Sequence record: PZ513998.1
Direction: 5' to 3' (one strand)
From: a phage
Length of the DNA stretch: 56,697 nucleotides
Shown in pieces: positions 17,836-31,422 of the stretch (its first letter is position 1; every line of letters begins with the position of its first letter). The notes under the pieces were generated by a model. The model was not told the origin of the DNA, searched no databases, and saw nothing but the letters and a program-made list of their open reading frames with translations. Made by a program: the position numbers and the translations under genes.

Positions 17836-18477
17836 ATGAGACGCGTTGATCCTAAAGACTGTTTAGACATAATCCTAAACTACCATTATGCGAAACGTCG
17901 ACCTAGCATATCTTACGCTTTCGGGTTCTTCGAAGACGAGGAGCTTGTCGGGGTTCTAACTATCGGTAAGCCGGCCAGCAACCCGCTATGTGTTGGAATA
18001 TTGGGCGAGGAGTACAAAAGCCACGTTTTTGAGTTAAACCGACTTTGTTTTATTCGTCCAATCCGTAACGCTCCGTCGCAGTTGATCGCCTTCGCTATGG
18101 CTGAGTTGAAAAGTGAAAACCTTGTCATCGTGTCGTATGCGGATCGCGGTATGAACCACAACGGATATATTTATCAAGCGTCTAATTTCATCTACACGGG
18201 GGCGACGAAAGCGCGCACCGATAAATACACGGAGCAAGGTAAACACTCTCGGCATTATCAAGGAAAGGAAAGCAAGACGTATCGACAAGTCAGAACATCT
18301 AAGCATCGTTACGTTTATTTTACGGGGAGCCGTTCGGTCGTGAAGAAGTATAAAAAGTTGCTTCGATATCCGGTATTGCCTTATCCCAAGGAAGAAAATA
18401 AAAATTATGTGCTCGGATCCGAGTACAAGCAAGAACTCGTTAAGATTAAAGGGGGAGAAAATGAAGCCGGTAAATAA
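17836..18477 (+). CDS. hypothetical protein, possibly GNAT-fold / Mom-like modification enzyme
   Basis: 213 aa; pattern NYHYAKRRP...YAFGFF...GVLTIGKPASNPL...ELNRLCF...LVIVSYAD...HNGYIYQASNF recalls acyltransferase-like phage proteins; recall-based and weak. Confidence 0.25.
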   Translation: MRRVDPKDCLDIILNYHYAKRRPSISYAFGFFEDEELVGVLTIGKPASNPLCVGILGEEYKSHVFELNRLCFIRPIRNAPSQLIAFAMAELKSENLVIVSYADRGMNHNGYIYQASNFIYTGATKARTDKYTEQGKHSRHYQGKESKTYRQVRTSKHRYVYFTGSRSVVKKYKKLLRYPVLPYPKEENKNYVLGSEYKQELVKIKGGENEAGK

Positions 18478-26844: not shown

Positions 26845-27585
26845 ATGATGATCAATCCCTACGCGGTGGAATTACAGAAATTGAAAGACGCCAAGAAACA
26901 CATTCCAAAGCAGATAAAAGACCAATGGCGTACTCCGGACTGGCTTTTCTACGCGCTAAACTCTTTATACGGCCCGTTCTTGGTAGATTTGTTTTCAGAT
27001 GGACAGAATGCTAAGTGCTCCCGGTATTTCATGGCCGAGGATAATGCGCTACAACAGAACTGGAAAGAAGCACTAGAAGACGCCAAGTTTGAATTCCTTA
27101 TCGATGCAGACTGTGCGGGGTACGATGCTACTGACGATCTAAAGACGGCCAAGTGTTTTGCTAACCCGCCATACAGCCCGGCTAAGTATATCGGTAAAGG
27201 GCGTAAGAATAGAATACCGCTCTGTGGTATGCGAAATATCATGGCTAAGGCCTACGAGGAACACAAGGCCGGTTGCCCTTCATTCTGGTTGCTTAAATCC
27301 GCCACGTCAGAAGATTGGTGGCCTAACGAGACCGCAAGCCAGATAATCCACATCAAGGGTAGAATTGCTTTCGAGAAACCGGTGTGGTTTAGAGATGAGG
27401 TCGTAGACCGCGTGGAAAGTAGTGCTGCTTTCGGTGCGTCCGTTGCTATTTTTAACGGAATAAACGATATTCAAGAACCGGAAGCCTACATCAGTCGAGA
27501 TACCTTAAAATTAATAGGGGAGCCACTTGCTGAAATTAATGCGGAAAGACGCGCCGAGTGGATAGCTAGTTTCGACGATCTATAA
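26845..27585 (+). CDS. DNA N6-adenine methyltransferase (phage Dam family)
   Basis: 246 aa; N-terminal WRTPDWLF motif and catalytic NPPY (CFANPPYSP) as in phage Dam-type MTases. Confidence 0.75.
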   Translation: MMINPYAVELQKLKDAKKHIPKQIKDQWRTPDWLFYALNSLYGPFLVDLFSDGQNAKCSRYFMAEDNALQQNWKEALEDAKFEFLIDADCAGYDATDDLKTAKCFANPPYSPAKYIGKGRKNRIPLCGMRNIMAKAYEEHKAGCPSFWLLKSATSEDWWPNETASQIIHIKGRIAFEKPVWFRDEVVDRVESSAAFGASVAIFNGINDIQEPEAYISRDTLKLIGEPLAEINAERRAEWIASFDDL

Positions 27586-27816: not shown

Positions 27817-28350
27817 ATGGATCATAAGTACAAGGTTTCGGACAGGAATACCGTCGCCCGAGTAGTGGGCCGTCATCGCCAATGGTGCGACGCATACGTT
27901 GAGGTAAAACGTATCGTTCGTGAAATGTCCGAAAAAGGGATAACCGATCTGGAAGTTGACGCGATGCCGATCCACGCGCACCTAAACCGGATTGCTGGTT
28001 TCAACTCATTTTTTGCCAACACTCAAAACGAATGGTGGCTAAGATTTAGACCATTTGAAGCCTACCCACAAGATAACGGGAAGACGCTAATTAAGTACCG
28101 CGACTCCCACCCGTGTAACATCTGGCGAAAAGTAGAAAAGATGGAATTCGACCGAGAAGATTTAGAACGAAGAATAAGTCGTATCGAACAAATATTACAA
28201 GGACAGCCGGAAACAATCGCATACGATAGAAAAGTATTTCGAATTCGTAGAACACAAGAATTATCTCAAACCGGCATGTCAAACCGAAAAGCGAGAAAAA
28301 TCGCATGGGAGGAAGCCGGTAGAGAATTCCCGGGAGAAGACCATGTTTGA
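27817..28350 (+). CDS. hypothetical protein
   Basis: 177-aa ORF. Confidence 0.3.
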   Translation: MDHKYKVSDRNTVARVVGRHRQWCDAYVEVKRIVREMSEKGITDLEVDAMPIHAHLNRIAGFNSFFANTQNEWWLRFRPFEAYPQDNGKTLIKYRDSHPCNIWRKVEKMEFDREDLERRISRIEQILQGQPETIAYDRKVFRIRRTQELSQTGMSNRKARKIAWEEAGREFPGEDHV

Positions 28351-28602
28351 ATGTTTGATGAAATACGGAGAATAAAACGGAAATATGAAATGTTGCCTCC
28401 CGGAGATAACATACCTCTGTATGGCGATTTCATTGAGTTTAAGGACGAATTTAACGGAGCAACATATATTGGGGAGGTGTTAGATCACCATTTCAGTTCA
28501 ACACCTCACGATCAAATTTGGAATGTCTTCGTAGACGGCGTGACCATATCTGCGAAACAATCTGAGATAACAAGAGTATACCGACGCAAACGGAGAAAAT
28601 AG
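28351..28602 (+). CDS. hypothetical protein
   Basis: 83-aa ORF. Confidence 0.25.
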   Translation: MFDEIRRIKRKYEMLPPGDNIPLYGDFIEFKDEFNGATYIGEVLDHHFSSTPHDQIWNVFVDGVTISAKQSEITRVYRRKRRK

Positions 28603-29466
28603 ATGAAAGACCTAACAAAACCTTTAGTAGAAATCGATATCGACGTTAGAACGGATTACCTACCTCACGGTGTTTTATCCGTTGATATCAAAACCGAGGA
28701 AATATCTCACGAACTAAAATCGTTACTAGCCGATACATTTGAAGCCATGGTAGTTCGTTTGATTTCTTCGGAGAGAAAATACCAAAGAGGGAACTCTTAC
28801 CAGAACGAAGAACTAGCGCAAAGCGGTGAACTCGCATTCCGGATCGCCGACCGGCTTAAAAATTTCCAAGATATTGACGCCATGAATTTGATTATGTTTT
28901 CCATGTACCATCAGGCGTATTCTGGACAACAAATTCATCTAATGGATAGTTGTATTAAAGATTTCCATCGCGGGGTGGTAGACGCGTATAACTTCATTGA
29001 TTCTACTTGCCCTCCCGGTTGTGCTGAGGAAGCGTTCCGAACACTGCTTATGAGCGAGTTAGTCGACACTACCATGAAAGAACTCGGCAAAGGCGATAAA
29101 ACCTCATACAAGATGTTAGGTGGCGATACGGCCAAGTTATCCGTTAACCCCCCTAAGTCCCTAAAAGCATTTGCGGATCAACTAGGCGACGAGGAGCTTT
29201 ACATCTATAACATTCTAGGCATGAATTTTGTGATCCCATGGTGGGGCGATACCGTAGTAGCGAATAAGGAAAAACAACTACTCGTGTTCCCGGGTGTACC
29301 ATATGTTGATCGAGAGACCGATAGATGGCGTTCACCAGACTGTGAAGATTTCCAAAAAGACGGTCTCGTTATCGGCACAATAGATGTCTCGAAAGAAAGA
29401 GAATATCTCATTGATGGTTTTATTCTATCTCTGTCCGCATTCAACCGCAAACCGCTAGAGGGCTAA
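28603..29466 (+). CDS. hypothetical protein
   Basis: 287-aa ORF. Confidence 0.3.
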   Translation: MKDLTKPLVEIDIDVRTDYLPHGVLSVDIKTEEISHELKSLLADTFEAMVVRLISSERKYQRGNSYQNEELAQSGELAFRIADRLKNFQDIDAMNLIMFSMYHQAYSGQQIHLMDSCIKDFHRGVVDAYNFIDSTCPPGCAEEAFRTLLMSELVDTTMKELGKGDKTSYKMLGGDTAKLSVNPPKSLKAFADQLGDEELYIYNILGMNFVIPWWGDTVVANKEKQLLVFPGVPYVDRETDRWRSPDCEDFQKDGLVIGTIDVSKEREYLIDGFILSLSAFNRKPLEG

Positions 29467-29931
29467 ATGAAATTAGTATACATAGCTGGCCCATACCGCG
29501 CAGACACCAAAGAGGGCGTGGCTGAAAATATCCGTAAGGCACAAGTAATCGGGCTATCTCTAACCACCAACGGACATACATTAGGGGTATTCCCCGTGAT
29601 CCCTCACATGAATACGGCGCACTTTGAGACCCACACTTTAACCGTATCACAAAAATTCAGCGCTTTTATTGAGCCGGTGCCAGATGAATACTGGCTACAA
29701 GGAACAATGGCATTGATGGAAAAATGCGATGCGGTTTTATTGACGCACCCACAAGCCGGCATAACAAGCAAGGGAACGCGGGCGGAGGTTATGCGCGCTA
29801 TTGAGTTGGGTATTCCTGTTTATGACCACATAAACGGTCTACTATCTGACCTTAGAGACGAATCAACGCCTCTACGAAGTATTAATGTTTTGAATGACAA
29901 GCGAGAATTTCTCGGGGCGGTTGATGAGTGA
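29467..29931 (+). CDS. nucleoside 2-deoxyribosyltransferase-like protein (DUF1937/DUF4406-type)
   Basis: 154 aa; N-terminal KLVYIAGPYRAD and C-terminal CDAVLLTHPQAGITSKGTRAEVMRAIELGIPVYD typical of this Rossmann-like family. Confidence 0.45.
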   Translation: MKLVYIAGPYRADTKEGVAENIRKAQVIGLSLTTNGHTLGVFPVIPHMNTAHFETHTLTVSQKFSAFIEPVPDEYWLQGTMALMEKCDAVLLTHPQAGITSKGTRAEVMRAIELGIPVYDHINGLLSDLRDESTPLRSINVLNDKREFLGAVDE

Positions 29932-29969
29932 ATGACAAGCGAGAATTTCTCGGGGCGGTTGATGAGTGA
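29894..29969 (+). repeat. perfect tandem duplication, 2 x 38 bp (ATGACAAGCGAGAATTTCTCGGGGCGGTTGATGAGTGA)
   Basis: copy 1 at 29894-29931 is the 3' end of ORF 29467-29931; copy 2 at 29932-29969 is the 5' end of the next frame-1 ORF, read in a different codon phase. Confidence 0.9.
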
Positions 29970-30147
29970 TGTAGCGTACTTAATAGTCGTTGCGATGTGT
30001 GCCTTAGTTATAACACTAGGGATACGGAAATAAATGCCCCTTTACTTTATTATCAAAACCGGCAAGACCGCTCACCGTCTTCACCACCCCAACCGCACAA
30101 CCTTTGTCCTAGGCAGTTATGAAATAAAACTTGGTCGGCCGTTTTAG

Positions 30148-31107: not shown

Positions 31108-31422
31108 ATGGCGGGTAGAGATGGAGGTACGGGAGGCGTTCGCATTGACTTGGCGATCAATATCCCGACTATCCTTTCGCTAATAGCAGCGTTGTGTAGC
31201 GGTATAATGTGGGTTAATAACCAGTTTAGCAATGTTAGAAACGATGTTTTGTTGGTCACGGCTGACGTTAGAGTCCTAGAACAACGAACAACGCAAGCCG
31301 AGCGGGAAATCGCCGATATAAAACATAATACCGCACAACAAATAAACCAGTTTCGAGGTGAAGTTCGCGAAGACCTTAGAGACATTAAAACTAGCGTTCA
31401 AAAACTCGCAGATAAAAAATAG
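31108..31422 (+). CDS. membrane-anchored coiled-coil protein (spanin-like)
   Basis: 104 aa; TM helix IPTILSLIAALCSGIMWV followed by heptad-like charged helix. Confidence 0.3.
   Translation: MAGRDGGTGGVRIDLAINIPTILSLIAALCSGIMWVNNQFSNVRNDVLLVTADVRVLEQRTTQAEREIADIKHNTAQQINQFRGEVREDLRDIKTSVQKLADKK

Follow-up and report, generated by a model that had tools for sequence, protein, structure and literature searches.

Escherichia phage E21 gp39, a protein of the nucleoside 2-deoxyribosyltransferase-like superfamily that may act on deoxynucleoside monophosphates

Among the described relatives of the nucleoside 2-deoxyribosyltransferases (NDTs), DNPH1 uses Y24, D80 and E104 as a catalytic triad, with S98 as a phosphate ligand (S97 in MilB), H56 contacting the base and stabilising the leaving group, and a conserved R30 whose MilB equivalent, R23, binds phosphate; Tyr instead of Phe at the first triad position goes along with a preference for deoxyribose, as in MilB F17Y (PMC10603095). 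DmtZ, a phage enzyme of the NDT family, hydrolyses deoxyadenosine monophosphate (dAMP) and moves deoxyribose 5-phosphate onto 2-aminoadenine; DmtZ and TbPDT are both functional although Asn takes the place of the general-acid Asp, and DmtZ occurs either as a DmtZ-Dut fusion or as a DmtZ-DutZ pair (PMC12884076). Three PF05014 proteins, two encoded on contigs with no predicted modification and one on a dZ contig, gave no transglycosylation with dA, dG or dZ (bioRxiv 10.1101/2025.10.22.683976). Here we compare with these enzymes the product of a gene at positions 29467-29931 of the phage sequence PZ513998.1 (56,697 nucleotides, analysed at full length and called the window below), which corresponds to gp39 of Escherichia phage E21.

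The coding sequence is complete on the + strand, from ATG to TGA, and specifies 154 amino acids plus the stop, with the N-terminus MKLVYIAGPYRAD. The window (1-56697) is an artificial head-to-tail chain of 85 called open reading frames (ORFs) of phage E21 (NC_052983.1). BLAST against the full E21 record revealed that the order of the record was kept and that each minus-strand gene had been reverse-complemented individually; the 85 consecutive + strand ORFs tile the window perfectly, with 0 nt between them, intergenic DNA is absent, and overlapping gene ends appear twice. Because the window is a concatenation of ORFs, the strand, spacing, promoters and terminators seen in it have no biological meaning. 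The gene itself, as the preliminary description had it, is real and no chance ORF: the reading frame is exact, a GAGGG Shine-Dalgarno sequence lies 6 nt upstream of the ATG in native E21 DNA, all homologues share the start MK(L/V)(V/I)YIAGPY (MKLVYIAGPYR in gp39), and profile searches return matches. The GC content of the gene is 0.469 vs 0.470 for the window, and the minus-strand ORFs across the same DNA comprise 69 and 55 amino acids.

The window protein is 100% identical to E21 gp39 (YP_009998143.1), named "nucleoside 2-deoxyribosyltransferase" in RefSeq, and 95-99% identical to its counterparts in about 27 Proteus and "Salmonella" Lavrentievavirus records. With tblastn, gp39 found matches in 210 phage records, including Chivirus, Yonseivirus and Nonanavirus. 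A profile built from 45 homologues yielded 19,255 matches at E≤1e-3 and 6,717 at 1e-10 (counted as representatives of 50%-identity clusters), mostly from phage-like contigs. IAGPY is the most conserved block of the family, and [VI]YIAGPY[RTS] was chosen as the search pattern for related loci. The protein is thus already known: an identical sequence is deposited and annotated, and the family has Pfam and PHROG entries.

DUF7768 (PF24963) was the only Pfam family above its gathering threshold for gp39 (28.1 bits, E = 2.6e-6; threshold 26 bits). PF05014 (Nuc_deoxyrib_tr) reached 16.0 bits (E = 0.014) over residues 69-119 only, against a threshold of 28.8 bits, and DUF1937 (17.7) and DUF4406 (13) also scored below threshold. 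PF24963 is present in most homologues, alone or together with PF14359 and PF09152. PHROG 355, whose name "nucleoside 2-deoxyribosyltransferase" is an annotation, matched residues 1-151 (E = 1.4e-20, 74.8 bits). Searches with phmmer against PDB and with hmmscan against NCBIfam returned noise only, and the PADLOC defence models, retron NDT-like effectors among them, gave no match at E≤1. An AlphaFold2 model of the gp39 monomer based on the 45-sequence alignment was confident (mean predicted local distance difference test score, pLDDT, 86.8; predicted template modelling score 0.83) up to about residue 130, with pLDDT blocks of 90 and then 56, 55 and 51 and the last ~24 residues disordered. The model has the flavodoxin-like alpha/beta fold of the NDT-like superfamily, with the nucleophile Glu on the helix that follows an S/D-x-G loop. 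Foldseek searches with it support the superfamily with weak E-values of about 1e-3, and among solved structures the nearest is that of a DUF1937 protein, itself uncharacterised, and not that of an NDT. These data make it sound to regard gp39 as a small enzyme of the NDT-like superfamily and to place it in the DUF7768/DUF4406/DUF1937 branch, which is large and biochemically uncharacterised. The preliminary description had called the gene deoxyribosyltransferase-like; with fold, PHROG 355 and RefSeq name in agreement this holds for the superfamily, whereas membership of the NDT family proper is not sound, PF05014 having stayed below its threshold.

Conservation was counted in the 45-sequence alignment and in a wider set of 221 family members (Table 1). 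Essentially invariant in the wider set were Y5, A7, G8, P9, Y/F10, R11, N21, A25, P46, H47, N49, T50, C87, D88, S101, G103, E107 and A111, of which Y5, S101, G103 and E107 were invariant in the 45 sequences and present in at least 219 of the 221. Profile alignment to the cyanobacterial CtNDT (8qc0) placed Y5 on Y7, T80 on D62 (the general acid), S101 on D82 (the Asp that binds the 5'-OH) and E107 on E88 (the nucleophile), and Asp88 aligns with the conserved 'xD' that precedes strand beta-3 in NDTs and DNPH1 (CtNDT D70, DNPH1 D88). The alignment of gp39 with the Lactobacillus leichmannii enzyme (LlNDT) by hhalign covered the C-terminal half only (E = 0.23). The nucleophile Glu and the orienting Tyr of the NDTs are therefore retained, and Glu107 is the predicted covalent nucleophile, equivalent to LlNDT E98, whereas the general-acid Asp (LlNDT D72, CtNDT D62) is replaced by Thr80 and the 5'-OH-binding Asp (LlNDT D92, CtNDT D82) by the invariant Ser101. 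The mapping of catalytic residues thus bore out the earlier family call for Tyr5 and Glu107 and contradicted it for both Asp positions. An hhalign alignment to human DNPH1 set Y5, R11, H47, T80, S101 and E107 on Y24, R30, H56, D80, S98 and E104; in this statistically weak alignment the phosphate-binding Ser, the Arg and the His of DNPH1 are matched by the invariant or nearly invariant S101, R11 and H47, and the Tyr-Asp-Glu triad is incomplete, with Tyr and Glu kept and Asp replaced by Thr80. Y5 takes the first triad position, where Tyr goes with a preference for deoxyribose. As judged from these alignments, gp39 appears to keep the covalent-catalysis core and to combine it with the Ser/Arg/His set of the nucleotide N-glycosidases rather than with the Asp/Asp pair of the nucleoside transferases.

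Fused domains and genomic position bear on the substrate. In the protein P0178, from a phage-like contig, a DUF4406/DUF7768 domain is joined to dGTP_diPhyd_N (PF18909), the N-terminal domain of dATP/dGTP diphosphohydrolases, and two BFVD proteins with the gp39 fold are named dATP/dGTP diphosphohydrolase N-terminal domain proteins. The fusion of an enzyme that converts deoxynucleoside triphosphates (dNTPs) to 2'-deoxynucleoside 5'-monophosphates (dNMPs) with a gp39-type domain suggests that this domain consumes dNMPs, in parallel with the characterised DmtZ-Dut fusion. Among 43 long relatives scanned, PF18909, DUF6378, DUF1599 ("nucleotide modification associated domain 1") and HNH_3 each occurred in one. 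In native E21, gp39 closes the rightward early/middle (replication) operon and meets, in convergent orientation, the late operon, whose last genes are those for lysis; in the Chi-like, Yonseivirus and 9NA-like phages examined the homologue likewise sits at the end of the replication-side operon or close to it, facing the lysis cassette. The genes next to homologues, which code for methylases, helicases, Pol A, UDG, nucleases and a dNK, also fit a place in replication and DNA metabolism. A Pfam scan of 44 non-structural ORFs of the phage found portal, terminase, DUF2800, Mom, Dam, ssDNA-binding protein, RdgC, Prim-Pol, Pol A, SNF2 helicase and DUF7768 families; gp39 was the sole recognisable nucleotide-metabolism enzyme among them, and no enzyme for making nucleotides or bases came up.

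From the ORF, family, fold, conservation pattern and fusion partners we infer a substrate, chemistry and role for gp39, and propose, with confidence a little short of even, that it is a covalent N-glycosidase or transferase that uses Glu107 on dNMPs during phage replication. Glu107, oriented by Tyr5, would attack C1' of a 2'-deoxyribonucleotide, so that a covalent deoxyribosyl-enzyme intermediate forms and the base departs. His47, together with Asn49 and Thr50, may stand in for the lost general-acid Asp (here Thr80) by holding and stabilising the departing base, and Ser101 and Arg11 would hold the 5'-phosphate, which would make the substrate a dNMP rather than a nucleoside. The intermediate could be resolved by water, as in a DNPH1-like dNMP N-glycosidase, or by another base, as in DmtZ-like phosphodeoxyribosyl transfer. 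Its place as the last gene of the replication operon and as the only nucleotide-metabolism enzyme recognised suggests that, while phage DNA is being replicated, gp39 remodels or cleans up the dNMP pool of the infected cell.

Several points weigh against this proposal. The hhalign statistics for gp39 and DNPH1 are weak (probability 1.9%, E = 0.025), and phmmer found no DNPH1 match for gp39; the numbering of the DNPH1 query sequence does match the published Y24/R30/H56/D80/S98/E104. The putative active site is assigned from sequence alignments. With Thr80 in place of the general-acid Asp, gp39 might be weakly active, catalyse something else or be inactive; as DmtZ and TbPDT manage with Asn there, however, loss of the Asp alone does not mean inactivity. 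Nucleotide-related extra domains are rare, occurring in 3 of the 43 long relatives, with HNH_3 in a fourth, and literature searches on the DUF4406/DUF1937/DUF7768 branch returned mentions in annotations but no functional study.

The proposal of dNMP chemistry has to be weighed against the name that the protein already bears. A canonical NDT (EC 2.4.2.6) would swap the bases of free deoxynucleosides for salvage, and RefSeq and many GenBank records give this name to the identical or near-identical protein, as does PHROG 355; the fold and the Tyr/Glu pair are common to gp39 and NDTs. We nevertheless consider this function unlikely, given the PF05014 score under the cut-off, the exchange of the 5'-OH-binding Asp for an invariant Ser and of the general-acid Asp for Thr, the DUF1937 protein as closest solved structure, and the inactivity of the three PF05014 proteins in transglycosylation in the study cited above.

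If gp39 instead cleaved an immune molecule or its precursor, such as signals derived from NAD+ or ADP-ribose, or dAMP as the precursor of the Kongming signal dITP, it would be a counter-defence N-glycosidase. This appears rather unlikely: PADLOC gave no match, no recognisable dNMP kinase (the Kongming trigger) was present among the ORFs scanned, the invariant Tyr5 and the Ser/Arg pattern favour a deoxyribonucleotide over NAD+, and the gene is located in the replication module, outside the early anti-defence genes.

The preliminary description had further suggested a part in DNA hypermodification. On that reading gp39 would either attach a non-canonical base to deoxyribose 5-phosphate or, in the manner of DmtZ in 2-aminoadenine phages, take a canonical dNMP out of the pool. 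The idea has a precedent, as DmtZ is a phage enzyme of the NDT family with exactly such a role (PMC12884076); in addition, the phage has other routes to DNA modification in its Mom family protein and Dam methylase, and DUF1599/Nmad1 is fused to one relative. Among the 44 ORFs, on the other hand, there are no PurZ, 7-deazaguanine, thymidylate-synthase-like, hydroxymethylase, dNMP kinase or MazG/Dut genes, and thus no source of a modified base. Mom and Dam work on DNA that has already been replicated and need no base-exchange enzyme. Gene neighbourhoods offered no partner either. BLAST clustering of the neighbours at 80 IMG/VR loci yielded no conserved partner, the best cluster being found in 6 of 34 groups. 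The Pfam families counted among 103 same-strand neighbours, from 50 diverse IMG/VR locus groups, included N6_N4 methylases (9), helicase domains (8), Pol A (3), UDG (3), dNK (1) and also nucleases, that is, generic replication and methylase families with no fixed partner, and no modification gene was consistently adjacent. Hypermodification is therefore unsupported here, and we hold it to be improbable. Less probable still is that gp39 has kept the fold without catalysis and binds a ligand as a nucleotide sponge or regulator: sponges for signalling nucleotides are frequent in phages, and gp39 lacks the general-acid Asp, but the Glu, Tyr, S-x-G, His47, Arg11, Asn21 and Cys87 do not vary among thousands of divergent sequences, a typical active-site pattern, and DmtZ and TbPDT are active with Asn at the Asp position.

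Table 1. Conserved segments of gp39, with positions in the window and residue counts in the set of 221 family members
Feature	Residues	Position	Strand	Conservation
YIAGPYR, strand beta-1 and following loop	5-11	29479..29499	+	Y 219/221, R 195/221
PHMNT, family-specific invariant loop	46-50	29602..29616	+	P 219, H 218, N 203, T 196 of 221
Gly-Thr, with Thr80 at the general-acid Asp position	79-80	29701..29706	+	T 152/221 (69%), D 53/221 (24%)
Cys-Asp, directly before strand beta-3	87-88	29725..29730	+	Cys87 nearly invariant
SKGTRAE, S-x-G-x-x-x-E motif	101-107	29767..29787	+	S, G, E each 220/221
C-terminal tail	121-154	29827..29928	+	poorly conserved; variable or absent in relatives

The surroundings of the gene in the window carry traces of its assembly. 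The 3' end of the gene carries, at 29891-29969, a perfect tandem duplication of 38 bp that E21 lacks; it arose because the overlap between the gp39 3' end and the called ORF 29932-30033 was written twice, and we rejected it as a real variant. An apparent 12-nt deletion that removes one arm of a native terminator was likewise rejected as an assembly artefact, the 5' arm being missing at 30033/30034 because intergenic DNA was removed. In native E21 a bidirectional hairpin terminator, AAGGGGCGTAATGCCCCTT, lies 67 nt after gp39 (L001 7402-7420, E21 31392-31410), between gp39 and the convergent lysis genes. The called ORF 29932-30033 would specify 33 amino acids (MTSENFSGRLMSDVAYLIVVAMCALVITLGIRK) with one hydrophobic segment, a potential membrane span, and its native start lies within the last codons of gp39. 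The next called ORF, 30034-30147, would specify 37 amino acids; the annotation of phage DanisaurMW puts an o-spanin on the opposite strand there.

Upstream of gp39, the genes at 27817-29466 have no Pfam family and match PHROGs of unknown function only. The one directly adjacent (28603-29466) encodes a 287-amino-acid protein of PHROG 30326 (unknown function) with no Pfam or PADLOC match; in E21 this gene and two others (27817-28602) separate the Dam methylase gene from the DUF7768 gene. The methylase, E21 gp35 (26845-27585), is a Dam-type DNA N6-adenine methyltransferase (PF05869, E = 9e-30), and in view of this match its RefSeq name, 'phosphoadenosine phosphosulfate reductase', looks like a misannotation. 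A phosphoadenosine phosphosulfate (PAPS) reductase as a general link to gp39 was accordingly dropped, gp35 being a Dam methylase and a true PAPS_reduct gene abutting the homologue only in the single Chi-like phage examined. In that phage, Salmonella phage HMD-P1 (Chivirus; L006 3066-4423), the end of the PAPS_reduct gene (PF01507) and the beginning of the DUF7768 gene share 4 nt, a sign of possible translational coupling; E21 lacks this pair. Elsewhere in the window, the ORF at 17836-18477 encodes a Mom family protein (PF25680, E = 5e-35), and adenine modification of the Mu-Mom type is possible in this phage. Judged by these matches, the phage probably modifies its own DNA by means of Mom and Dam. 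Several relatives of gp39 carry C-terminal additions of 60-120 residues without a Pfam match, among them the protein of Klebsiella phage Seifer (L007 4001-4729) and P0022-P0050 (~190 amino acids), and P0060 and P0083 have a C-terminal extension in common that, by eye, may be MazG-like.

A specialist will find no surprise in these findings on gp39, and the propagated name "nucleoside 2-deoxyribosyltransferase" is over-specific for its branch. From the pattern of Ser101, Arg11, His47 and Thr80 one would expect a substrate with a 5'-phosphate and a changed mode of acid catalysis. Phages carry very many members of the branch, so that one enzymology result would annotate thousands of genes, and a phage enzyme that cleaves dNMPs would bear on pool remodelling and on evasion of nucleotide-based immunity. 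A bolder generalisation, which strikes us as doubtful, is that the DUF7768/DUF4406 branch forms a distinct, undescribed class of phage dNMP N-glycosidases/phosphodeoxyribosyltransferases in which His47 replaces Asp as the leaving-group catalyst and which depletes or interconverts specific dNMPs. Such a class could bring pools fed by the breakdown of host DNA back into balance, or deprive immune signalling of its nucleotide precursors, for example in Kongming dITP synthesis.

Compared with the known systems, gp39 stands closest by family to DUF7768 (PF24963), DUF4406 (PF14359) and DUF1937 (PF09152; 1T1J, Pseudomonas aeruginosa PA1492), the function of none of which is known, so that membership alone explains nothing; 1T1J retains the Asp where gp39 has Thr80. 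Relative to the PF05014 NDTs (LlNDT, CtNDT and TbPDT), gp39 is below the Pfam threshold, and LlNDT Asp72 and Asp92 are Thr and Ser in gp39. The active site of NDTs is oligomeric, completed by a C-terminal residue from the adjacent subunit; in gp39 the tail from about residue 131 on has low pLDDT in the monomer model and is not conserved. To DNPH1/Rcl and MilB, which are (deoxy)nucleoside 5'-monophosphate N-glycosidases, its sequence similarity is not significant on its own: the general acid D80 of DNPH1 is Thr, the GSIRGG loop is AGPYR, and no equivalent of the helical extension with S128' was identified in gp39. DmtZ of the 2-aminoadenine (Z) phages is, like gp39, a phage-encoded member of the NDT superfamily, and it acts on a dNMP, as is proposed for gp39; as in gp39, the Asp/Asn that binds the 5'-OH is absent and a residue other than Asp (Asn77 in DmtZ) occupies the general-acid position, and as in some gp39 relatives it is fused to or adjoins a dNTP-hydrolysing domain (PMC12884076). 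Foldseek gave a weak match (E = 9e-4) between gp39 and a protein of Gordonia phage Ghobes, the source of DmtZ, that is not confirmed as DmtZ itself. Unlike DmtZ, gp39 has no PurZ/DpoZ context around it, and it is set apart from DmtZ by its family-specific PH.NT loop.
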